A DNA stretch of 64,000 bases. Source: a phage. Positions 5,723 through 63,978 of this stretch are shown piece by piece; the stretch's first letter is position 1; the number at the start of each line of letters is the position of its first letter. The DNA lies in NCBI GenBank assembly GCA_021081985.1, contig GCA_021081985.1_3639.1. One strand, written 5' to 3'. Made by a program: the position numbers and the translations under genes. The notes under the pieces are model-generated. The model was given only the letters and a program-made list of their open reading frames with translations, was not told the DNA's origin and ran no database searches.

Positions 5723-6129
5723 TCTCGGTGTTGGATTACACACCGGAGTTTGCCTTGAAATCTAATGTTGGGGGTTTCCATGTAAATCCGAAAGCTGGGT
5801 CATACATCGCTGTCCCGACAGAGTGGGTTTTTGATGAACGGTTATCACCAAGCGATCTGCAAAGATTGATACGCTTGTTGTGGAGATACGAGTATTTCAA
5901 GAATCTGAACCCTCTGGGTGGGGAACTGGTATTCTTTCCGTCACAACAATCCTTGTGTGGCCTGTTGGGGTGGAATGAAAACTCACGAACCAAAGTGTCT
6001 GAATTTCTGTCTCGGATGGAGAGCTTTGGTTATATCAGGCGTGTTAGATCAGGATTTCAGGATTCTGATGGTAACGTGAAACCAAGAAATTATATTATCG
6101 TCAATCGTATCAGAGGGGATAAATCATGA
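5704..6129 (+). CDS. hypothetical protein
   Basis: 141 aa ORF, 4-nt overlap with the downstream Prs-like gene; start uncertain because it overlaps the promoter-like site. Confidence 0.4.
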   Translation: MGLWVAFSVLDYTPEFALKSNVGGFHVNPKAGSYIAVPTEWVFDERLSPSDLQRLIRLLWRYEYFKNLNPLGGELVFFPSQQSLCGLLGWNENSRTKVSEFLSRMESFGYIRRVRSGFQDSDGNVKPRNYIIVNRIRGDKS

Positions 6130-6935
6130 ATATTCGTTTGAGTTTGAACAAGCTACATGTGCCAGTTGACCATTTCACATTTAGTGGTGGTGAGGAGCAG
6201 ATTAAGATCGATATGCGTCATGTTCCGCATGGTTCGATAGGTTTTGTTGATATCTTCGCTAGACTCAAGAACTCACAGGATGTGATGTGTTTGGCACTGC
6301 TTGTTGATGCAGTTAATCGTCTTGGCAATTTGGATGTTGGTGTGGAAAAGGTTTTACACCTGCCGTACATTCCGTATGCTCGACAAGACCGAGTTATGAA
6401 CCCTGGAGAATCTCTGTCGGTGAAAGTCTTTGCCACAATGATTAACTCGCTTGGTTTCCACAAAGTCATCGTCGATGATCCACACAGTGACGTATCCGCA
6501 GCACTGATTGATAACGTGAAAATTCGTTCTCAGACTGATTTGTTCTTGAACATGAATTTTGATTTTGATCTGCTTACGGACGAATCGCTTGTGTTGGTTG
6601 CTCCAGATGCAGGTGCACGCAAGAAGACCCAGAAGGTTGCTGATACCTTGGAACTATCTGTGGTTGAAGCAGGTAAAATCCGTGATGTGGGAACAGGGGC
6701 AATCACAGGCACAACAGTGTTTGGTGATGTTGGTGGGAAGACATGCCTGATTGTCGATGATATCTGCGATGGTGGGTTTACGTTTACAAACTTAGCTCAA
6801 GCCTTGAAAGCTGCTGGTGCAAAACGTGTTATTTTGTATGTTACGCATGGAATTTTCTCTCGTGGGAAAGAATTTATTCTCGACGGTGGTGTTGACGAAA
6901 TTTATGCATACTACGACTGGACAGAAAATTTTTAA
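6126..6935 (+). CDS. PRPP-synthetase-like phosphoribosyl pyrophosphokinase
   Basis: 269 aa; PRPP-binding signature LVAPDAGA and IVDDICDGG. Confidence 0.7.
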   Translation: MNIRLSLNKLHVPVDHFTFSGGEEQIKIDMRHVPHGSIGFVDIFARLKNSQDVMCLALLVDAVNRLGNLDVGVEKVLHLPYIPYARQDRVMNPGESLSVKVFATMINSLGFHKVIVDDPHSDVSAALIDNVKIRSQTDLFLNMNFDFDLLTDESLVLVAPDAGARKKTQKVADTLELSVVEAGKIRDVGTGAITGTTVFGDVGGKTCLIVDDICDGGFTFTNLAQALKAAGAKRVILYVTHGIFSRGKEFILDGGVDEIYAYYDWTENF

Positions 6936-6999
6936 GTTGGTATTGACAAAGATACGTTTTAGTGAAAAAATACGTTTTTAGGATTGGAGGGTTGAGATC

Positions 7000-8715
7000 A
7001 TGCTTCACAAAGAAAGTCCATTGCTGTTTGCAGATTTTTATAAACCAAGTCACATCTCGATGTACGACAAACGTTCACAGTTTGTTCAAGACAACATGAC
7101 ACCACGCAATGCGAAACACTTTGTACACTTTGCAGATGATGACCATCGTGTAATGTTTGCTGGTCTTCAGGGATTTATCAAGTGGTTCCTGATTGACATG
7201 TTTAATAATAATTTCTTTGCTTTACCGAAAGAAAAGGCGATTCAGGATTACAAAGAGATTTGTGATTTGAGCATTGGGAAGGATGCTGTTGAAACTTGGG
7301 GTTTTGAGAGATTGCATGATCTTGGATATCTCCCAATTGAAATTAGAGCTTTGCCTGAAGGAACTCTTGTTCCTGTTCAGGTTCCTATGTTCACGATTCA
7401 GAACACGCACCCTGATTTTTACTGGCTGCCAAACTTCCTTGAGAGCGTGATCTCCTCGGAGACTTGGAAGACAATTACCACGGCAACGACTTTCTGGCAA
7501 TATCGTAAACTATCAGAACTGTGGGCAAAGAAAACATGTGATAACAACGATCACGTTCCTTTCCAGAACCATTGTTTTGCATACCGTGGTGAAGCTGGAA
7601 CACATGACGCAGCACAGAGCGAATTTGGGCAACTGATTAGCTCAATGGGCACAGATACAATTCCAGCGATTGTTTACGCAAATCGCTATTACAACATGAA
7701 AGGTCGCTTTGTTGCTGGGTCTATTCCCGCATCTGAGCATAGCGTAGCGACAACGAACATTGGTTTTATTGTTGAGCGTATCCAGCAGGAAAATCCTGAC
7801 ATGTCGCTTGCTGAAGCACGTTTTCGTGCTGAAGTTGAGTTCTTAAAGCGTTATGCAACAGAGATTTTTCCGTCAGGCTATGCTTCATACGTCGCAGACA
7901 GCTATGATTTTTGGGCAATCATTACACAAGCAGCCAAAATCCTGAAAGATGAGATTATGTCTCGTGATGGCAAGCTGGTCTTCCGACCGGACAGTGGGAT
8001 CCCAGAGCACATCATTGCTGGCTATCGTGTGTGCTCTCAGGAAGAATGGGCAACGGGACAGTGCTGTGATATGGATGCTGTGCTGTTTAAAAATGGCAAA
8101 TATGTCACTCTGTACGAGATGTCCAGAGACACTTCTTGGATGCGAGATTCGGAAGGCAACCTCGTAGATTGGAAATCTTTGACAGGTGATGAATTTACAA
8201 ATTATCTTACCAAAGAGGAGGTTAAGGGTGCTGTACAATGCTTGTGGGAAATCTTTGGTGGTAGTGTAAACTCTTTGGGTTACAAAGTTCTTGATAGCCA
8301 TGTTGGTTTAATCTACGGAGACTCTATCACAATCTCTCGTGCTAAAGAGATCTTTGAGCGCCTTGAAGAACGAGGCTTTGCTTCCAGCAACATTGTGTTT
8401 GGTGTAGGATCTTATACAACGCAATATACAACCCGTGATTCTCTTGGGATGGCTGTAAAAGCTACTGGTGCTGTGATTGATGGCAGACAAGTAATGGTTG
8501 TAAAAGAGCCTAAGACTGATCTTGGGAAGAAATCTGCGAAAGGTTTTGTTAAAGTTATTCGTGGTGATGATGGTGAGTTGAAGCTGGTAGATAATCTTGG
8601 TATTAATCAGGTATCTGACCCTGACAACGAGCTTAGAACAGTTTTTGTTAATGGTAAGCTGCTTGTGGATGAGGATCTTGAAGAAATTCGTCAAAGAGCT
8701 TTGTCACAGCTTTAG
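7000..8715 (+). CDS. nicotinamide phosphoribosyltransferase family protein
   Basis: 571 aa; N-terminus LFADFYKPSH and overall length typical of NAMPT/NadV. Confidence 0.75.
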   Translation: MLHKESPLLFADFYKPSHISMYDKRSQFVQDNMTPRNAKHFVHFADDDHRVMFAGLQGFIKWFLIDMFNNNFFALPKEKAIQDYKEICDLSIGKDAVETWGFERLHDLGYLPIEIRALPEGTLVPVQVPMFTIQNTHPDFYWLPNFLESVISSETWKTITTATTFWQYRKLSELWAKKTCDNNDHVPFQNHCFAYRGEAGTHDAAQSEFGQLISSMGTDTIPAIVYANRYYNMKGRFVAGSIPASEHSVATTNIGFIVERIQQENPDMSLAEARFRAEVEFLKRYATEIFPSGYASYVADSYDFWAIITQAAKILKDEIMSRDGKLVFRPDSGIPEHIIAGYRVCSQEEWATGQCCDMDAVLFKNGKYVTLYEMSRDTSWMRDSEGNLVDWKSLTGDEFTNYLTKEEVKGAVQCLWEIFGGSVNSLGYKVLDSHVGLIYGDSITISRAKEIFERLEERGFASSNIVFGVGSYTTQYTTRDSLGMAVKATGAVIDGRQVMVVKEPKTDLGKKSAKGFVKVIRGDDGELKLVDNLGINQVSDPDNELRTVFVNGKLLVDEDLEEIRQRALSQL

Positions 8716-9626: not shown

Positions 9627-9702
9627 GGCCCCTTAGCTCAGTGGTTAGAGCAGGTGACTCATAATCGCTTGGTCGCTGGTTAAAGTCCAGCAGGGGCCAC
9701 CA
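9627..9702 (+). tRNA. tRNA-Met (CAU)
   Basis: Acceptor GGCCCCT/AGGGGCC, anticodon loop CTCATAA, T-arm GGTTAAAGTCC, encoded CCA. Confidence 0.8.
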
Positions 9703-9754
9703 AATGTGGCACACGAAATAAACTAGGTTTATTGTTTTCGGAGGAGAAAACTTA

Positions 9755-10078
9755 ATGGCTAAGAAACAGTCTGCTAAAAAGGTATCAGCTATCGAGGCGA
9801 TCAAGCAACCTTTTCAGTTTGAATCAAAATCCACGCAGACACATTCTGCACCGCACGATGTGCGTCTTGGTGGCAAAACGCAAACTGTAGCAGTTCTGAA
9901 AAAACGCAAAGATGAAGACGGTAATACTGAAATGTATTATGAATCTGTGTCTCGTGTCATTGGTGGTGAAGTGATTTCTGCTTCCTATCGTATCCGTACT
10001 GGGAAAACAAAGCGTGAACGAGAAGTGAAACAGAAAACAAGCACTCCTGTAGGAAACGTTAAGAAAACTAAAAAATAA
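9755..10078 (+). CDS. hypothetical Lys-rich basic protein
   Basis: 107 aa ORF directly after tRNA-Met. Confidence 0.4.
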   Translation: MAKKQSAKKVSAIEAIKQPFQFESKSTQTHSAPHDVRLGGKTQTVAVLKKRKDEDGNTEMYYESVSRVIGGEVISASYRIRTGKTKREREVKQKTSTPVGNVKKTKK

Positions 10079-10154
10079 TTTACTGACGAGAGTGCCACCG
10101 TGAGCCAGCGTCATTAAACAAAGGGAATCACGGACATTCAGGAGGGTTGAGATT

Positions 10155-10346
10155 ATGATAGGATCTTTGCTTAAGATTGCAAGCGATGTAACAACAACGG
10201 CTGTTGAAGTGACTGCTGCGGTAACAACTCCGTTTGTTGATTTAGCATCAGATGCTATAGCAGCAGCAGACGAGATGATTTTGTCACCGACATCTGATCT
10301 TGTCCAAGATCTTTGTGATTCTATAAAAGATGCTGTAAAAGATTAA
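10155..10346 (+). CDS. hypothetical small acidic protein
   Basis: 63 aa, rich in Asp/Glu/Ala/Thr. Confidence 0.35.
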   Translation: MIGSLLKIASDVTTTAVEVTAAVTTPFVDLASDAIAAADEMILSPTSDLVQDLCDSIKDAVKD

Positions 10347-10354
10347 AATTTTTC

Positions 10355-10383
10355 TTGACATAGTTTTTGTTTTTCTGTATAGT
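10355..10383 (+). promoter_or_regulatory. sigma70-like promoter
   Basis: TTGACA, 17 nt, TATAGT. Confidence 0.55.
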
Positions 10384-10419
10384 TACTTTATCAAAGCTAA
10401 TTTACATAGGAGAGATTGA

Positions 10420-11067
10420 ATGTCTACTAAGATTTCCGTAACTCGTGCACTTGCTTCTATCTCTAAGATTGAAGATAAGATCAATAAGCGCATTTATAAC
10501 CTTGAATGTATTAAGATTGCAAAAGGAACTGAGAATAATTGTAAGATTCCTGGTTATATCGGCTCTGTTGATGATTTTAAGAAATCTGCGATCAACGACT
10601 ATCAAAGTCTGCAAGACCTCTTGGCAGTTCGCGATGAACTGAAGGCAAAAATTGTCAAGTCTAATGCTGAGACAATTGTCAAAATTGGTAAGGTGTCTAT
10701 GACAGTTGCTGAGGCAATCGAACGCAAACGGACGATTTGCTTTAAACAAGAGTTGTTAAACAAACTTTGTGCACAGCGTGCTTCTGCACAGCTTCTTCTG
10801 GCAAAAGAAGAAAAATCTCTGGAAGATAAACTTGAAAATGCCAGAGCGCCATATATCCAACGTGATAAAGCGCCAGATGCAGAGCAGATTAAGACTGTGG
10901 AAGCTCCCATTCGAATGATGAACACACCATCGGTTGTGGATCCTCTTGAACTGGCTTCTAAGATTCGTTCTCTTGAAGAAGAGATTGAAGATTTCTTGTC
11001 TAACGTTGATTTTGCGTTGTCTGAGTCAAACGCTAAGACAGAAATTGAGATTGAGCACTCTCTCTAA
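10420..11067 (+). CDS. hypothetical coiled-coil protein
   Basis: 215 aa, charged and helix-rich. Confidence 0.5.
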   Translation: MSTKISVTRALASISKIEDKINKRIYNLECIKIAKGTENNCKIPGYIGSVDDFKKSAINDYQSLQDLLAVRDELKAKIVKSNAETIVKIGKVSMTVAEAIERKRTICFKQELLNKLCAQRASAQLLLAKEEKSLEDKLENARAPYIQRDKAPDAEQIKTVEAPIRMMNTPSVVDPLELASKIRSLEEEIEDFLSNVDFALSESNAKTEIEIEHSL

Positions 11068-11432
11068 AAGGCTCTGATAATATCATTATCGTTCCTTTGT
11101 TTTGAAATTTAAAACATTGCTTTTGATTAACGAAGTTTACATCATCTTGCCTCCTGGGGATTGGAGGTTAAATATTCCCCACCATGTATCGTATATGTAT
11201 GAGGATAATACAGAACATAGATGCAGCGAGGCACACGAAGATGCTTTGTTGTTTCCACTAAGTAAAAGTTCATACAATAAAGGTCAATGGTTAAATGTGA
11301 AAGATGAAACTTGAAAGTTGACTCTTGAAAGATAAAATTTCGTTTATCATCTGAAATCCTTGACACAGGTTATGGCTCACAAGATATGGTCTGTAAAGCC
11401 TCAAGGCTGTTAATCGGAAGCAATGTCTTATT

Positions 11433-11507
11433 GCTCGTATAGCTCAACGGTAGAGCACCTGCCTTGTAAGCAGGGGGTTGCAGGTTCGAAACCTGCTGCG
11501 AGCACCA
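11433..11507 (+). tRNA. tRNA-Thr (UGU)
   Basis: Acceptor GCTCGTA/TGCGAGC, D-arm GCTC..GAGC, anticodon loop CTTGTAA, T-arm GCAGGTTCGAAACCTGC, CCA. Confidence 0.8.
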
Positions 11508-11509
11508 AT

Positions 11510-11606
11510 GCTGGGTAAGCCCTTTGGCAAGGGCGAGGATTTATAATCCTGAAAATAGACGGGCTAGCCGTTGAATACATAGGTGGTTCGATTCCATCAC
11601 CCAGCC
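11510..11606 (+). ncRNA. non-canonical tRNA-like RNA
   Basis: tRNA-type acceptor (GCTGGGT/ACCCAGC), D-arm and T-arm (GGTGGTTCGATTCCATC), but the anticodon position is a closed hairpin AGGATT-tat-AATCCT followed by a second tight hairpin; about 97 nt, no CCA. Confidence 0.4.
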
Positions 11607-11807
11607 ACAAGTTTGTTTTATAGTGTATTAGCTTATATTATTCGATATAAATGCCTGATCAGCATTTGTTGTGAATGAGGCATACAATGCGTGAGAAAGC
11701 TATCGGTGCGCAACGTTGATTTCAAACGTAGTCATGCTCGTAGAGCACCAACTGTGGAAGTTGGAGGGTGGTTGAGTAACCATACACTATAAAGCATTCT
11801 TTAAAAT

Positions 11808-11892
11808 GGGCGGTGTCCCCACACAAGTCTTCTAAACTTGTACTTAAAAAGTGGGAAGGAAGTGAGAGGTTCGATTCCTCCACCGTCTACCA
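11808..11892 (+). ncRNA. non-canonical tRNA-like RNA
   Basis: 3' end TTCGATTCC...ACCGTCTACCA with a pairing 5' segment GGGCGGT, no D-arm, internal hairpin ACAAGT-cttctaa-ACTTGT. Confidence 0.3.
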
Positions 11893-11968
11893 GATTAACC
11901 CCAACTTGAGAATCGTCAGCGCGGCTCGTAAGACCCACTCTATAGGTTCTCTACCTGGGGTGCTTATT

Positions 11969-12045
11969 GCACGGTTGCCGGAATTTGGTTACGGGTCTGT
12001 CTGCAAAACGGATATATGTCGGTTCAAGTCCGACACCGTGCTCCA
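11969..12045 (+). tRNA. tRNA-Cys (GCA)
   Basis: Acceptor GCACGGT/ACCGTGC, anticodon arm TCTGT-CTGCAAA-ACGGA, T-arm GTCGGTTCAAGTCCGAC, CCA; D-stem imperfect. Confidence 0.65.
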
Positions 12046-12082
12046 AACTTTCAATTTCTTGGCAAATATGTTAAAATACCAC

Positions 12083-12111
12083 TTGACAGATATGTTTTTA
12101 TTTGATAATAT
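12083..12111 (+). promoter_or_regulatory. sigma70-like promoter
   Basis: TTGACA, 17 nt, TAATAT, followed by RBS and ATG at 12132. Confidence 0.6.
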
Positions 12112-12131
12112 CATTAAGTGGGGTTTTTAAA

Positions 12132-12479
12132 ATGGCTACTAAGCAGCTTACAAAACGTAGAAGAGGAAAAGGTCGTCCTCTGAAAGAGGAATCTAATGCA
12201 ATTCAGTTAGAGAAAAATATCCTAGATTTGAAAACGAATCTGATTGCAATGATTCCTGAAGCTCATCAGGTTCTTAGGGATTTGATGAAGAATGTGAATA
12301 CAAAAGACAATATCAGAGAAAATATCGCTCGTTATGTTATTGAGAAAGGTGAGCAGATGCTTTCTGATTACTTTGATGAGGAAAACGAAGAGTTACTCGA
12401 AAAAGATAACTCAGAAAAAGCGCCTATTAAGGCAGCCAAACCATTCTCGACGGATATTGTTCAATTCAAACAAGGTTAA
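12132..12479 (+). CDS. hypothetical protein with basic N-terminus
   Basis: ORF track 12102..12479; start moved to the ATG after the promoter and RBS (MATKQLTKRRRGKGRP...). Confidence 0.45.
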   Translation: MATKQLTKRRRGKGRPLKEESNAIQLEKNILDLKTNLIAMIPEAHQVLRDLMKNVNTKDNIRENIARYVIEKGEQMLSDYFDEENEELLEKDNSEKAPIKAAKPFSTDIVQFKQG

Positions 12480-12480
12480 T

Positions 12481-12570
12481 GTGTCGTTAGACCGTAGGGG
12501 TAGCGGGGGAGACTGTAAATCTCCTGTCTCGAAAGGGACTCGGGTAGTTCGACTCTATCACGGCACACCA
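12481..12570 (+). tRNA. tRNA-Tyr (GUA), type II
   Basis: Acceptor GTGTCGT/ACGGCAC, anticodon arm GGAGA-CTGTAAA-TCTCC, long variable arm, T-arm GGTAGTTCGACTCTATC, CCA. Confidence 0.75.
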
Positions 12571-12638
12571 ACTAAATCTGTACTGGCTTTGATGTGTGAC
12601 GATACCCTCCAATCGTGGTTGTTGGGTCAGTACAGTTT

Positions 12639-12714
12639 GGGAGTGTAGATCAGTTAGTAGATCGCTCGACCGATAATCGAGAGGACGTAGGGGCAGAGCC
12701 TACCACTCCCACCA
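12639..12714 (+). tRNA. tRNA-Ile (GAU)
   Basis: Acceptor GGGAGTG/CACTCCC, D-arm GATC..GATC, anticodon arm CTCGA-CCGATAA-TCGAG, CCA; position 33 is C and the T-loop is atypical. Confidence 0.6.
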
Positions 12715-12719
12715 AATAT

Positions 12720-12794
12720 GCATCCATAGTTTAATTGGGAAAACTACAGCCTTCCAAGCTGAAGTCGAGGGTTCGATGCCCTCTGGATGCTCCA
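12720..12794 (+). tRNA. tRNA-Gly (UCC)
   Basis: Acceptor GCATCCA/TGGATGC, anticodon loop CTTCCAA, T-arm GAGGGTTCGATGCCCTC, CCA. Confidence 0.75.
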
Positions 12795-12919
12795 GTTAAA
12801 AGATGTCAATGAAATCCGCTTGGGTCAACTGAAGACCGTAACAAATTCCATGGGGTTGTGTTTGCGGTCCAACCCTAGACATCTTCTATCTTTAGTAGAA
12901 GGCTTTAATACGGACGAGT

Positions 12920-13150
12920 ATGATGGTTTCTAAATTAATCATAACAAGGCATCATAATGCTAAAGAAATAGAGATTGTGAATGCTGCTGGCACTCTTGTG
13001 CTAAAAGTTGGTAAAGACTGTCCTTTTGAATTGTGCCAGAAGGAACTTTTAAGTTTGTGCGGTTTCAGGTTTAAACAGATTATCTTTGAAAATGCTTTTC
13101 AATATTCAGACTTAAACCAGTACATTATATCTAGGCTTGATCCTGCATGA
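12920..13150 (+). CDS. hypothetical small protein
   Basis: 76 aa ORF, 4-nt overlap with the next gene. Confidence 0.35.
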   Translation: MMVSKLIITRHHNAKEIEIVNAAGTLVLKVGKDCPFELCQKELLSLCGFRFKQIIFENAFQYSDLNQYIISRLDPA

Positions 13151-13704
13151 GATACTTGAAATATTTATCTTGGATCCTGTTAGCACCTCTTGATCCAATT
13201 ATGTCGGCTCTCTGTGTTATTCTGGCTCCTTTTGTTGTTCCGTTCTATAATGAGAAGACAGGGCATCTACCCTATATTTTCAGGTGGATGGAAACATATG
13301 ATAATCCTATAGACGGTGACAGAGGACACATAGAGAGATGGGAAGAAGTCCGTAAAATAGGAAGTTTTGGTGTTTACCTACAACGAGTTGCTTGGTTGTG
13401 GAGAAATAAAGCCTACAATTTTTCCTATCACGTACTTGGACGTGAAATCGCATCTGTGACAAAGTGGAAAGGAAACATCCATGTAAGCTCTGATGTGGAG
13501 GATAATCAACAAGGCTATTTGTTGATGTGGAATGACAATGCGTGGGGTGTATTCGCGTTTGTCCCGTCTTTTAGATTGTTTGGAAAACAATTTTACTGGC
13601 GAATTTATGTCGGTTGGAAACTGAAGAGTGTGGTTCCTGAAGACAGAGCTTTTTCAAGAGAGAGGGTGATGTTGGCATTTTTCATAAGTCCTTTCCGAAA
13701 ATAG
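13147..13704 (+). CDS. hypothetical membrane protein
   Basis: 185 aa, hydrophobic N-terminal segment LSWILLAPLDPIMSALCVILAPFVVPF. Confidence 0.45.
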   Translation: MRYLKYLSWILLAPLDPIMSALCVILAPFVVPFYNEKTGHLPYIFRWMETYDNPIDGDRGHIERWEEVRKIGSFGVYLQRVAWLWRNKAYNFSYHVLGREIASVTKWKGNIHVSSDVEDNQQGYLLMWNDNAWGVFAFVPSFRLFGKQFYWRIYVGWKLKSVVPEDRAFSRERVMLAFFISPFRK

Positions 13705-13710
13705 TTTTTA

Positions 13711-13792
13711 ATGAGAGTAGCGTAACTTCACTGGGTGAAGGCTGGCCTCCAAAACCAGTGACTAAGAGGTTCGATTCCTCACTCTCGTGCCA
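13711..13792 (+). tRNA. tRNA-like, possibly tRNA-Trp (CCA)
   Basis: Acceptor ATGAGAG/CTCTCGT, loop CTCCAAA, T-arm GAGGTTCGATTCCTC, CCA; D-region is over-long and non-canonical. Confidence 0.4.
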
Positions 13793-13793
13793 A

Positions 13794-13869
13794 AGGGGAT
13801 TAGCATAGTGGCCTAATGCAACGGGCTTTGACCCCGTGATCGGTTGTTCGAATCAACCATCCCCTGCCA
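13794..13869 (+). tRNA. tRNA-Gln (UUG)
   Basis: Acceptor AGGGGAT/ATCCCCT, D-arm GCAT..ATGC, anticodon arm ACGGG-CTTTGAC-CCCGT, T-arm GGTTGTTCGAATCAACC, CCA. Confidence 0.8.
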
Positions 13870-13878
13870 AGTTAAAAC

Positions 13879-13968
13879 GGAGAAGCAAATCGATTGGCGA
13901 CGAAACCACATTGGAAATGTGCTGACTGGTAAAACGGCTTGAGAGTTCGATTCTCTCCTTCTCCACCA
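13879..13968 (+). tRNA. tRNA-Ser (GGA), type II
   Basis: Acceptor GGAGAAG/CTTCTCC, anticodon loop TTGGAAA, long variable arm, T-arm GAGAGTTCGATTCTCTC, CCA. Confidence 0.7.
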
Positions 13969-13982
13969 GTTTTTAAGGATTT

Positions 13983-14726
13983 ATGTATGCACTCTCCCCA
14001 AGAAAAAAAAATGGAAAACAGATATTTAATTTGTTGAAAAGCGGAAAAGGCTTCTCAAACCCGCTTCAATCAGGTCTTTCTCTGGTTGGTGGTAAAGTAA
14101 GTAGTCTATCTTCTTTATCTTCCTCTATTTCTTCGGTAACTAACCCAGCTATAAAGGCTCAATTAGCTGCCGCAGGTTTGACAACTGGCGTTTTATCAAA
14201 TTTTACTTCGTCTCTTGGTTCTGTTACAAGCACGACAAAAACGCTTGTTGATTATGGTCAGAAATCTGTTGAAGAGTTCTCCCAAAGAATGCACGCAGCG
14301 AGTAATTATATGAGTACTCTGAGCAGAATGGGAGAAAAGACAAGTTGTTCAATATTTAGTGACGTTATGTCTGTAGCCACTGATTTAGGTAAGAAAGCTA
14401 TGGATGCCGTTAATTCCGCGATGGATGCGGTGAACGATGTTATGTCTCAATTGCAAGATGCAATAAATAAGGGTTTGAATACAATATCTAGTTTGGCGAG
14501 TAAAGCTGTCTCAGCGATAAACAAAGGGATCCAGAAAATGTCTGAGTATGCTAGCCAAGTGACAAAGATGATTGAAGATGAAGCAAAGAAGTTGGCAGAC
14601 TACTTAAAGACAAGTGCTGAAGGATTTCTCGCAGATATCCTACCTGATTGGTTTAACGATTCTTGTAAATCTGGTATAGTTGACCAGATTGCTACACCAG
14701 AGATGAAAGAAGTTCTTAAAAAGTAA
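13983..14726 (+). CDS. hypothetical protein with Ser/Thr-rich N-terminus and amphipathic helical repeats
   Basis: 247 aa; repeated AMDAVN/SAINKG-type helices. Confidence 0.5.
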   Translation: MYALSPRKKNGKQIFNLLKSGKGFSNPLQSGLSLVGGKVSSLSSLSSSISSVTNPAIKAQLAAAGLTTGVLSNFTSSLGSVTSTTKTLVDYGQKSVEEFSQRMHAASNYMSTLSRMGEKTSCSIFSDVMSVATDLGKKAMDAVNSAMDAVNDVMSQLQDAINKGLNTISSLASKAVSAINKGIQKMSEYASQVTKMIEDEAKKLADYLKTSAEGFLADILPDWFNDSCKSGIVDQIATPEMKEVLKK

Positions 14727-14728
14727 TT

Positions 14729-14822
14729 GGAAGATTAACCCTAATTTGGTAAGGGGTCTCCCTGCTAAGGAGATAGTAACCCAGAAATGGGTGTGCCAGT
14801 TCAAGTCTGGCATCTTCCTCCA
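14729..14822 (+). tRNA. tRNA-Ser (GCU), type II
   Basis: Acceptor GGAAGAT/ATCTTCC, anticodon arm TCTCC-CTGCTAA-GGAGA, long variable arm, T-arm GCCAGTTCAAGTCTGGC, CCA. Confidence 0.75.
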
Positions 14823-14901
14823 CTGTATGTCAAGGCTCAGATTTCTTCGGACCTGGGCGTTCGCCTTTGTTGGGTGTATATTCTCGGCAGAGGCTATCTT
14901 T

Positions 14902-14990
14902 GGAGGCTGGGGTGCATGGTGCACAAGCTGGTTTGAACCCAGTCCCGCTGTAGAGATATGGTGACAGTTCGATTCTGTCAGCCTCCTCCA
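14902..14990 (+). tRNA. tRNA-Ser (UGA), type II
   Basis: Acceptor GGAGGCT/AGCCTCC, anticodon arm GCTGG-TTTGAAC-CCAGT, long variable arm, T-arm GACAGTTCGATTCTGTC, CCA. Confidence 0.7.
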
Positions 14991-15213
14991 AGTTATCTTT
15001 AATGTAGCTTGTTTAGTTGCTTGGTGTGATTTTTCGGTGGATGGCTGCAACCATCTTATCGATACCCCAGAGCAGTCCGCTCTTTACTGGCGTAAGCCAA
15101 ACACTTATGATGGTCATGTAATCGTAATCTATCATTAGTGTGCTCTCCCTGGAGAGCTGTTGCGTATAGCTAATTATTGTGTGAGTAATTAGCTATTTTA
15201 AAGATAATTTGAC

Positions 15214-15290
15214 GGATCTGTAGCCAAATGGTTTAAGGCACTCGACTTTTAATCGAGAGATTGTTGGTTCGAATCCAACCAGATCCACCA
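15214..15290 (+). tRNA. tRNA-Lys (UUU)
   Basis: Acceptor GGATCTG/CAGATCC, anticodon arm CTCGA-CTTTTAA-TCGAG, T-arm GTTGGTTCGAATCCAAC, CCA. Confidence 0.85.
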
Positions 15291-15299
15291 AAATATTCA

Positions 15300-15390
15300 G
15301 GTTCTTTGACCGAGTGGTCGATGGTGACGGCCTGTTAAGCCGTTGGGAGGAATCTCCCCACCGAAGGTTCGAATCCTTCAGGAACCGCCA
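15300..15390 (+). tRNA. type II tRNA with GUU anticodon (nominally Asn)
   Basis: Acceptor GGTTCTT/AGGAACC, anticodon arm ACGGC-CTGTTAA-GCCGT, 19-nt variable arm with hairpin GGGAG/CTCCC, T-arm GAAGGTTCGAATCCTTC, CCA. Confidence 0.55.
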
Positions 15391-15474
15391 ATTCTTGACT
15401 TAATCAAGTCACAGATATCACCTAGCCAGCGATACCAGTTAGTAGATTCTGGGACAATTAAAATCTACATTTCT

Positions 15475-15552
15475 CTGTCCGTAGCGCAGCTTGGGTAGCG
15501 CGGGTCACTTGGGATGATCAGGTCGTTGGTTCAAATCCAACCGGACAGACCA
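15475..15552 (+). tRNA. tRNA-Pro (UGG)
   Basis: Acceptor CTGTCCG/CGGACAG, D-arm GCGC..GCGC, anticodon arm GGTCA-CTTGGGA-TGATC, T-arm GTTGGTTCAAATCCAAC, CCA. Confidence 0.8.
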
Positions 15553-15594
15553 ATAAACATATACATATCAAAGCAGAAATGTACAGAGGATACC

Positions 15595-15786
15595 ATGTTA
15601 ACAGTTAAAGTCGTATCTCCAAATGATGAACAAATTTTTTGTGGGAAAATTGTTGGGTATTGTGCTCATCAAAAGTCTATAGCTATTTCAGGTATTGACC
15701 AAAAAGTGTTTTTGTCTGAGGATCAGACCGCTTATGTGATCAATGCCAATGGAAAAACTATTTCTGTGTATCGTGGAAAACCGTAA
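15595..15786 (+). CDS. hypothetical small protein
   Basis: ORF track 15514..15786 begins inside tRNA-Pro; internal Met (MLTVKVV...) taken as start. Confidence 0.3.
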   Translation: MLTVKVVSPNDEQIFCGKIVGYCAHQKSIAISGIDQKVFLSEDQTAYVINANGKTISVYRGKP

Positions 15787-15800
15787 CTCTTAATATAAAT

Positions 15801-15877
15801 GGGCGATTGATGGAATTGGTATACATGTCAGGCTTAGAACCTGAATTTTGGGGGTTCGAGTCCCTCATCGCCTACCA
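15801..15877 (+). tRNA. type I tRNA with UAG anticodon (nominally Leu)
   Basis: Acceptor GGGCGAT/ATCGCCT, anticodon arm TCAGG-CTTAGAA-CCTGA, 5-nt variable loop, T-arm GGGGGTTCGAGTCCCTC, CCA. Confidence 0.55.
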
Positions 15878-15882
15878 ATTAT

Positions 15883-15958
15883 GTGACGGTAACTCAGTTG
15901 GTAGAGTGCCTTGCTGAAGACTAGGTGGTCACAGGTTCGAATCCTGTCCGTCACACCA
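15883..15958 (+). tRNA. tRNA-Phe (GAA)
   Basis: Acceptor GTGACGG/CCGTCAC, D-arm ACTC..GAGT, anticodon loop CTGAAGA, T-arm ACAGGTTCGAATCCTGT, CCA. Confidence 0.75.
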
Positions 15959-16208: not shown

Positions 16209-16284
16209 TGCGAGTTTGAAGTCTGGTGACTTCGCTGGTCTCATAAGCCAGTCCAGATTGGTTCGATCCCAATACTCGCAACCA
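16209..16284 (+). tRNA. tRNA-Met (CAU), second copy
   Basis: Acceptor TGCGAGT/ACTCGCA, D-arm GAAG..CTTC, anticodon arm CTGGT-CTCATAA-GCCAG, T-arm ATTGGTTCGATCCCAAT, CCA. Confidence 0.75.
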
Positions 16285-63184: not shown

Positions 63185-63444
63185 AGAGAGTTCGTTACGC
63201 TCTCCCGCACCATTACGTGCATAGCCACAAGATTTCTCCTGTGGGTCGGACTATTTCATCCTCCTAATGTTAAGGAGGCCTCCCGTTTCGACCGCACTTG
63301 CTGGCCTACTCTACTCGCTTTCACATTACTAGTGTGCTTTCGATAGTCTCTGAACGTTCATCCCGTAGGGATGCTTCGCTGCGGATTAGCATATTGAACT
63401 TTTACCACTTTTACGTATAAAAGTCAACTTAGCCTTCCCGTCAA
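63185..63444 (-). mobile_element. putative ORF-less group I intron in DNA polymerase gene
   Basis: About 260 nt non-coding insert between the motif B and motif C exons; contains a 38-nt core (63351-63388) nearly identical to the terminase intron. Boundaries approximate. Confidence 0.5.
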
Positions 63445-63978
63445 TTAAAGAGGTTTTCGACATGCATTACTGCATGAAGCCACAATTTGTTTATGGTAGT
63501 AGATAACCCTCCTGACACCTTGGTCGTACCATCCCCGTTTTACCAATTCCCAATGGAACAGGACTCCCATGAGGTCAAACAATGAAGCACCACCGTTTTG
63601 TTGGTAAGCATTCAGCAGAGAATGTTTAGAACGAGTCCAAATTTTACGCCCGTCCATGCCTGGAATATAGCGTCTGCCATTTGCCTCCCAGAATTTTTCC
63701 AACCACTCTCTACGCATTTTCAACCCGAAGTTACTATCCCAGAATGCGTCTATTACAGCCTGTGCTCTATTAAGGGGGATACCCAGCATTGCGGCTATCT
63801 TAGGAGCTTGTGCTCCATACATAATTCCATACGTAACCCCCTTTCCTCCAGAGCGTGTTACCTCCTTTCCTGCTGCTATTGTGTATGCTCTTGCGTTTCG
63901 TTCATGGGCATCCTCTTCCATCATGATACGTAAATACTCACCACCGTCAAACTCAAAAGCCCCTGCCGCTGCAATCAT
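63445..63978 (-). CDS. family A DNA polymerase, upstream part containing motif B (ORF-track fragment; N-terminal region beyond first ATG and window edge not assessed)
   Basis: TRSGGKGVTYGIMYGAQAPK matches Pol A motif B (R..K..YG..YG). Confidence 0.7.
   Translation of the reverse strand: MIAAAGAFEFDGGEYLRIMMEEDAHERNARAYTIAAGKEVTRSGGKGVTYGIMYGAQAPKIAAMLGIPLNRAQAVIDAFWDSNFGLKMRREWLEKFWEANGRRYIPGMDGRKIWTRSKHSLLNAYQQNGGASLFDLMGVLFHWELVKRGWYDQGVRRVIYYHKQIVASCSNACRKPL

Follow-up and report, generated by a model that had tools for sequence, protein, structure and literature searches.

Which amino acid is delivered by a tRNA whose architecture disagrees with its anticodon? According to textbooks and a recent tRNA identity review, a long variable arm is restricted in bacteria to the tRNAs for Leu, Ser, and Tyr. 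The window analyzed here, a 64,000-nt stretch of phage DNA (contig GCA_021081985.1_3639.1 of assembly GCA_021081985.1), encodes two tRNAs that seem to break this rule in opposite directions. The first-pass annotation, made from the letters alone, had described one tRNA with a 19-nt type II arm and the Asn anticodon GUU, and another with a short type I variable loop and the Leu anticodon UAG, and it proposed that either both had been misread by eye or the phage encodes identity-swapped tRNAs.

The window has a GC content of 40% and an identity of 96–97% across the region with Escherichia phage Av-05 and with vB_EcoM_TH18, a phage placed in Vequintavirinae, and it is assigned by this similarity to an Av-05-like Vequintavirinae coliphage. 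Among the 14 tRNAs that ARAGORN identified in the array (Table 1), the two odd tRNAs were the sole Asn and the sole Leu members. The array order is syntenic in Cronobacter phage GAP31, Escherichia phage 4MG, and Salmonella phage PVP-SE1, and Rfam detected two further tRNA-like matches over the gathering score (29 bits for RF00005) in the array. ARAGORN and the covariance model placed both anticodons exactly where they had been read by eye, and automated folding did not move them to canonical isotypes; both tRNAs are therefore real, and the proposed misreading was not borne out. The tRNA-Tyr anticodon loop reported at 12481, CUGUAAA, was also present as described, one base from the CUGUUAA loop of the GUU tRNA.

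Table 1. Features of the tRNA region and other elements of the window, with the basis of each assignment.
Feature	Position	Strand	Basis
Phage tRNA array	9627..15958	+	ARAGORN, 14 tRNAs
tRNA-Asn(GUU), type II architecture, 91 nt	15300..15390	+	ARAGORN tRNA-Asn(gtt); Rfam RF00005, 57.0 bits, E 1.5e-10
Anticodon GUU, loop CUGUUAA	15334..15336	+	ARAGORN and Rfam alignment
19-nt variable arm	15344..15362	+	Covariance-model alignment and count of the sequence
tRNA-Leu(UAG), type I architecture, 77 nt	15801..15877	+	ARAGORN tRNA-Leu(tag); Rfam RF00005, 60.7 bits, E 1.5e-11
Anticodon UAG, loop CUUAGAA	15835..15837	+	ARAGORN and Rfam alignment
5-nt variable loop AUUUU	15845..15849	+	Covariance-model alignment
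tRNA-like match, anticodon GAU (Ile)	12639..12711	+	RF00005, 53.4 bits; unseen by ARAGORN
tRNA-like match, 97 nt	11510..11606	+	tRNA model, 33 bits, barely over threshold
tRNA-Sec model match	16210..16279	+	Sub-threshold (30–37 bits for the three matches; gathering score 47)
tRNA-Sec model match	13715..13786	+	Sub-threshold, as above
tRNA-Sec model match	11807..11889	+	Sub-threshold, as above
tRNA-Ser, A73	13879..13968	+	
tRNA-Ser, U73	14729..14822	+	
tRNA-Ser, U73	14902..14990	+	
Counterpart of tRNA-Lys(UUU), ordinary 77 nt	15214..15290		
Match to the group I catalytic intron model, full length	63228..63502	-	RF00028, 78.7 bits, E 2.5e-18
Two adjoining ORFs with matches to ribose-phosphate pyrophosphokinase domains and nicotinate phosphoribosyltransferase (NAPRTase)	6126..8715	+	

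The GUU tRNA has the acceptor stem GGUUCUU/AGGAACC, the discriminator G73, and the D arm ACCG-AGUGGUCGA-UGGU. Its variable region, UGGGAGGAAUCUCCCCACC, consists of U, a 5-bp stem (GGGAG/CUCCC) with a GAAU loop, and four unpaired nucleotides (CACC) before the T stem; the RF00005 alignment inserts about 16 nt in this region, and the length of 19 nt comes from our own count. We considered the extra hairpin as the true anticodon arm and ruled this out, since its loop of only 4 nt cannot serve as an alternative anticodon arm. Both odd tRNAs encode CCA and have an intact T loop, and both show the hallmarks of the tRNA family, i.e., a cloverleaf with U8, A14, G18G19, U33, and a GUUCRANYC T loop.

Homologues of the GUU tRNA, annotated plainly as tRNA-Asn, were identified in GAP31, 4MG, and PVP-SE1, as well as in Enterobacter phage EC152, Klebsiella phage VIK251, and the 348-kb Salmonella phages 7t3 and SE_PL. 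When 15 homologues were aligned, standard pairs occupied 97% of the cells, compared with 74% in shuffles and 31–53% with slid partners, and two-sided changes occurred at 20 of 26 pairs. The extra arm alone had two-sided changes at four of its five helix pairs, and these compensatory changes mark it as a real, selected helix rather than an insertion scar. A BLAST search of both odd tRNAs against 5,426 E. coli genomes gave no match, with queries that are probably too short for such a database; E. coli K-12 tRNA genes were retrieved directly for comparison. That the odd tRNAs are decaying or non-functional copies is hard to credit. Degenerate tRNA-like sequences do occur in the same array (e.g., 12639–12711, with C33 and an aberrant T loop), but the two odd tRNAs score 57–61 bits with every hallmark intact, are conserved across phage genera with compensated helices, and have hundreds of independent homologues, including a BF23 tRNA-Leu that works as a suppressor according to its annotation.

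Additionally, we observed several other unusual elements in and around the array. The match with anticodon GAU carries C33 in place of the near-universal U33 and the T loop GGGGCAGAGCC instead of the usual GGUUCGAAUCC, and may be a degenerate or specialised tRNA-Ile. The 97-nt match directly follows tRNA-Thr; since a tRNA-Arg(GCG) likewise follows tRNA-Thr in GAP31, this match may be a tRNA with an insertion. Bacterial tRNA-Sec is also long-armed. The three matches to the tRNA-Sec model sit between tRNA genes and may be more tRNA-like remnants, comparable to the "tRNA-like RNAs of unknown function" of BF23. Just upstream of the long-arm Asn tRNA, a "tRNA-Lys(UUU)" of 84–87 nt was found in GAP31 (5745–5831), PVP-SE1 (2848–2933), and 4MG (2744–2827), with an ordinary counterpart in the window. 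ARAGORN missed this gene in GAP31 and 4MG and called a 4-nt anticodon at the PVP-SE1 position; in GAP31, for which alone the sequence was read, the variable loop is normal and the D loop is about 10 nt longer. Eight ORFs from the array and its flanks were scanned with Pfam, and no synthetase, tRNA-repair, or tRNA-modification enzyme was found. The ORF pair upstream of the array may form a phage NAD salvage module, and a full-length match to the group I intron model lies elsewhere in the window.

The identity set of E. coli AsnRS comprises G34, U35, U36, and G73, and it confers Asn identity when moved into tRNA-Lys (PMC9976931). This set is complete in the GUU tRNA. The loop CUGUUAA, which we take to be the anticodon loop of E. 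coli tRNA-Asn in agreement with the asnT alignment row, and G73 are common to E. coli asnT, the type I tRNA-Asn of T5/BF23, and the window tRNA. The acceptor end with its discriminator is also nearly identical between the window (GGTTCTT..AGGAACC-G) and BF23/T5 type I tRNA-Asn (GGTTCCT..AGGAACC-G), and the T arm of the 7t3 homologue exactly matches that of BF23 tRNA-Asn. The two forms differ in architecture: type I tRNA-Asn has a variable loop of 4–5 nt and a 4-bp D arm (GCUC/GAGC), whereas the window tRNA has a structured 19-nt arm and a type II-style D arm of 3 bp plus G-U, with the extra positions 20a/20b. No other Asn tRNA accompanies the long-arm GUU tRNA in the near-complete arrays retrieved for GAP31, 4MG, and PVP-SE1.

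An identity swap or a dual identity would mean that SerRS charges the GUU tRNA wholly or partly, placing Ser at Asn codons, and that the UAG tRNA carries an amino acid other than Leu. SerRS recognises its tRNAs mainly by the variable arm and takes no account of the anticodon (PMC9976931). In the window clade, Ser-like features comprise G1:C72, G2:C71, C11:G24, G73, and the 5-bp extra stem, with U3:A70 in addition in the window tRNA, and the D arm is identical or nearly so to that of the phage tRNA-Ser(GCU) of PPSC2. The window tRNA thus has the bacterial tRNA-Ser pairs G1:C72 and G2:C71, but in the wider long-arm GUU family of phages G2:C71 reaches only 41%, and 35% of members carry C2:G71, an antideterminant against SerRS (antideterminant table, PMC9976931). 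The PVP-SE1 homologue lost G2:C71 (A2:U71) and retained GUU and G73.

Across phages, the acceptor ends of the long-arm GUU tRNAs were close to those of short-arm Asn tRNAs. The first pair was U:A in 56% and G:C in 36% of the former and U:A in 65% and G:C in 26% of the latter; the second was G:C in 41% and C:G in 35%, compared with 44% and 42%; and G73 occurred in 87% and 89%, respectively. Phage Ser tRNAs had G1:C72 in 86%, G2:C71 in 93%, A3:U70 in 80%, and G (67%) or U (24%) at position 73, and phage Tyr tRNAs had G1:C72 in 78%, G2:C71 in 72%, and A73 in 94%. These results indicate that the acceptor end of more than 100 phage long-arm GUU tRNAs bears an Asn signature, not that of Ser or Tyr. 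G1:C72 and G2:C71 are present in all three tRNA-Ser genes of the window, and their discriminators (A73, U73, U73) differ from the G73 of both E. coli tRNA-Ser genes compared.

Bacterial tRNA-Tyr resembles the window GUU tRNA in its short extra hairpin, the approximately three unpaired nucleotides at the 3' base of this hairpin, and G34-U35, and its anticodon GUA is one base from GUU. However, tRNA-Tyr has A73, which is critical for TyrRS, whereas the window tRNA has G73 and U36, so that of the TyrRS set (A73, GUA, with U35 critical) only U35 and G34 are shared. The number of unpaired nucleotides at the arm base determines in which direction the arm points, and SerRS reads this direction. Between the extra stem and the T stem, long-arm Asn tRNAs had three or four unpaired nucleotides (four in the window tRNA), Ser mostly one, Leu mostly two, and Tyr mostly three; among tRNAs of the same phages and E. 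coli, the count was mostly 0–2 for Ser (one in E. coli Ser) and mostly 3–4 for Tyr. The arm of the window tRNA therefore lies outside the Ser-type setting of 0–2 nucleotides, and by this measure it is set in a Tyr-like, not a Ser-like, manner.

We also scored the tRNAs with an isotype classifier, consisting of anticodon-masked profile HMMs built from canonical phage tRNAs (held-out accuracy of 70%). The window GUU tRNA scored 34 bits for Ser and 12.5 bits for Asn, and the calls for 111 long-arm GUU tRNAs included Ser for 64, Tyr for 26, and Asn for 10. Since the same HMMs also assign Ser or Tyr to the majority of long-armed tRNAs for Thr, Met, Trp, and Cys, the classifier appears to read mainly architecture, and its Ser call was set aside as an indication of charging identity. 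For the window clade, partial or full charging of the GUU tRNA with Ser by host SerRS is, on these sequence comparisons, quite unlikely.

The UAG tRNA begins with G1-U72, ends with A73, and has the D loop AAUUGGUAU and no long variable arm of the kind typical of tRNA-Leu; the last U of its variable loop AUUUU is placed opposite A15, giving an A15:U48 Levitt pair. Charging by E. coli LeuRS depends crucially on A73 and requires A15-U48, G18G19, and A20a, while the long arm and the anticodon arm are removable (PMC9976931). All elements of the LeuRS set, namely A73, A14 (with U8), A15:U48, G18G19, and U20-A20a, were found in the UAG tRNA, and in the alignment with E. coli leuW the positions A14, A15, U16, U17, G18, G19, and A73 were invariant. 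The masked HMMs gave Leu as the best call, narrowly (30.7 vs. 28.9 bits). Likewise, short and long Leu tRNAs of phages were similar in A73 (93% and 96%) and C2:G71 (61% and 64%).

Phage records matching the UAG tRNA numbered 212, including Vequintavirinae, Vibrio, Aeromonas, Leptolyngbya, and T5-like phages. In particular, tRNA-Leu1 of T5/BF23 is also a 77-nt tRNA with UAG, a 5-nt variable loop, A73, and the D loop AAUUGG[U/C]AUA. The window tRNA is about 79% identical to it over 61 nt and is, by this resemblance, a member of the same lineage; the acceptor and anticodon stems have changed with compensation, and G1-U72 is found in the window tRNA. According to the BF23 record, tRNA-Leu1 recognizes the CUA codon, and a swap of its anticodon to CUA yields an effective amber suppressor. 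This annotation, in which the amino acid is unnamed, suggests that tRNA-Leu of this lineage is charged and used on E. coli ribosomes. Type I tRNA-Leu without a long arm likewise exists in Streptomyces coelicolor and human mitochondria (PMC6614811). E. coli LeuRS failed on the type I tRNA-Leu(CAA) of S. coelicolor (PMC6614811), and short-arm Leu tRNAs are therefore not automatically LeuRS substrates; unlike the Streptomyces form, that of phages has retained A73 together with a D-loop core of the E. coli type, and it acts as an E. coli suppressor per the BF23 annotation.

Taken together, long Asn tRNAs resemble short Asn tRNAs and short Leu tRNAs resemble long Leu tRNAs at the acceptor end and discriminator; on present evidence, it is the architecture that appears to be swapped and not the amino acid. 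The mismatch described by the first-pass annotation thus stands, but its suggestion of an identity swap is disfavoured, because the nucleotides used by the E. coli synthetases match the anticodons. A swapped or dual identity is accordingly improbable. It draws on the Ser-like features of the window GUU tRNA, the dependence of SerRS on the arm, and the masked Ser call, and is opposed by the family-wide acceptor signature, the SerRS antideterminant, the arm base, the acceptor stem in common with T5/BF23 type I tRNA-Asn, the position of this tRNA as the sole Asn tRNA in otherwise complete sets, the PVP-SE1 homologue, and the full LeuRS set of the short Leu tRNA with its Leu call. Its most far-reaching form, in which SerRS charges a substantial fraction of the GUU tRNA and the phage deliberately puts Ser at Asn codons, is an outside prospect; if true, the wider class of long-armed tRNAs in phages would amount to a family of natural missense tRNAs.

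The body of nematode nev-tRNAs reportedly keeps Leu or Ser identity elements, and these tRNAs are said to be mischarged. Anticodon variants of tRNA-Ser that cause mistranslation retain a body with Ser identity elements, and they are mischarged (PMC9976931). Like the window GUU tRNA, both nev-tRNAs (PMC3333845) and these tRNA-Ser variants (PMC9976931) combine a long arm with an anticodon that belongs to none of Leu, Ser, and Tyr; unlike them, the phage long-arm GUU tRNAs have an acceptor end and discriminator that follow the amino acid of the anticodon.

We therefore regard it as likely that both genes encode functional phage tRNAs that decode as their anticodons say, and we infer charging by AsnRS and LeuRS. 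Host AsnRS would charge the 91-nt tRNA, which would read AAY codons, and host LeuRS would charge the 77-nt tRNA, which would read CUA and CUG, and probably CUU too, provided that its U34 carries the modification of the host tRNA. The textbook rule would then be broken only in the variable region, together with the matching D arm of the Asn tRNA. The odd shapes would be possible because AsnRS uses the anticodon and G73, and LeuRS uses A73 and the D/T-loop core but not the long arm. Class IIb synthetases approach the tRNA from the variable-loop side, and the long arm might thus hinder AsnRS.

A supply role of both tRNAs fits the codon use of the window. Per 1000 codons, the window ORFs use AAU and AAC 53 times, CUU 22 times, CUA 6.3 times, and CUG 13 times; the corresponding values of E. 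coli are about 39, 11, 4, and 53. This comparison suggests that the phage demand is higher for exactly the codons read by both odd tRNAs. A main role outside decoding, as decoys or sponges for host immune nucleases that target tRNAs, is very unlikely: host defences do cut tRNA variable regions, but a pure decoy would have no need of the full identity sets and anticodon loops that are conserved here, and no other tRNAs take the Asn and Leu slots of the retrieved arrays.

How common the long-arm GUU shape is was surveyed in IMG/VR with the pattern CTGTTAA, 22–30 nt, and GGTTCGAATCC, which returned at least 120 loci. Among the matches listed, 117 of 124 had anticodon GUU in an ARAGORN tRNA of 83 nt or more, and several of the other seven were truncated at locus ends; 106 distinct and very diverse long-arm GUU sequences were parsed from these listed matches. 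A scan for either arm length gave, among the matches listed, 112 new short-arm Asn loci and found eight long-arm loci again, so that, among these listed matches, roughly 7% of the phage Asn tRNA loci sharing this loop and T loop are long-armed. When 185,579 bacterial and archaeal genomes were scanned with the long-arm pattern, 25 of 122 listed matches were long GUU tRNAs, the remaining listed matches being tmRNA 3' ends and chance matches. About eight of these 25 resemble archaeal intron-containing genes, and many of the bacterial ones sit in loci with 5–39 tRNA genes per 8 kb that look phage-derived. The viral and cellular scans together indicate that the long-arm GUU class is mainly a phage feature. 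In the samples of phage Leu tRNAs, 45% were shorter than 81 nt and 36% had a variable loop of at most 6 nt; thus, about 35–45% of phage Leu tRNAs have a short arm. Long arms were also observed in phage Cys tRNAs (20–33%, with U73 kept) and in 3–8% of other isotypes; Thr, Met, Ile, Lys, Asp, Glu, His, Trp, and Pro all have long-armed examples. IMG/VR loci with such tRNAs include L038, L042, L037, L070, and L025. Two 91-nt tRNA-Lys occur in L038, and some contigs carry several long-arm tRNAs.

With regard to origin, an Asn-type acceptor end and a Ser/Tyr-type D arm give the window Asn tRNA a mosaic appearance. For the D arms of 110 long-arm Asn tRNAs, the nearest neighbour was Ser in 23 and short Cys in 20, the rest being scattered; the long-arm Asn tRNAs could derive from Tyr, from Ser, or from a recombinant. 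Two candidate reasons for the odd shapes are escape from host nucleases that attack the variable region and a neutral by-product, the latter arising when tRNA genes duplicate, recombine, or change anticodon within phage arrays. An altered variable loop lets T5 tRNA-Tyr escape retron-Eco7/Septu (PMC11555353, PMC13096335); this phage variable region differs from that of the host and is a precedent for the region as a site of conflict. Because the variable region is such a site, gain of the arm (Asn, Cys) and loss of the arm (Leu) could hide tRNAs from nucleases that read tRNA shape or the variable region, a possibility that we put forward tentatively and consider rather doubtful. In T5 tRNA-Tyr the architecture is the same and the benefit is demonstrated, whereas the window tRNAs have gained or lost an entire arm, for a benefit that is hypothetical. 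Bacterial Schlafen nucleases, considered as an arm-specific threat, found no support, as the characterised one cuts type I tRNAs.

The anticodon-based GenBank annotation of these genes is known already, and the T5/BF23 Leu tRNA was sequenced long ago. A 2019 study presented arm-less tRNA-Leu as an oddity of Streptomyces and mitochondria and treated it as rare (PMC6614811). Our full-text literature search, whose coverage excludes the older Russian-language T5 literature, retrieved no description of long-arm phage tRNA-Asn, and it retrieved none of short-arm phage tRNA-Leu. Both shapes are common in phage genomes and seem previously undescribed, with an ordinary decoding identity probably residing in a non-canonical architecture.

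These results show that phages break the arm rule often and in both directions: long-arm tRNA-Asn forms a large class found mostly in phages, smaller sets of long-armed tRNAs exist for Cys, Thr, Met, and others, and the arm is missing from a third or more of phage tRNA-Leu. Such genes will be marked as mismatches by isotype classifiers, which is a warning for annotation, and they provide natural test cases for the tolerance or rejection of the arm by AsnRS, SerRS, and LeuRS. Since host immune nucleases cut tRNA variable loops, the shape of tRNA may itself be contested between phage and host, which is a testable idea.
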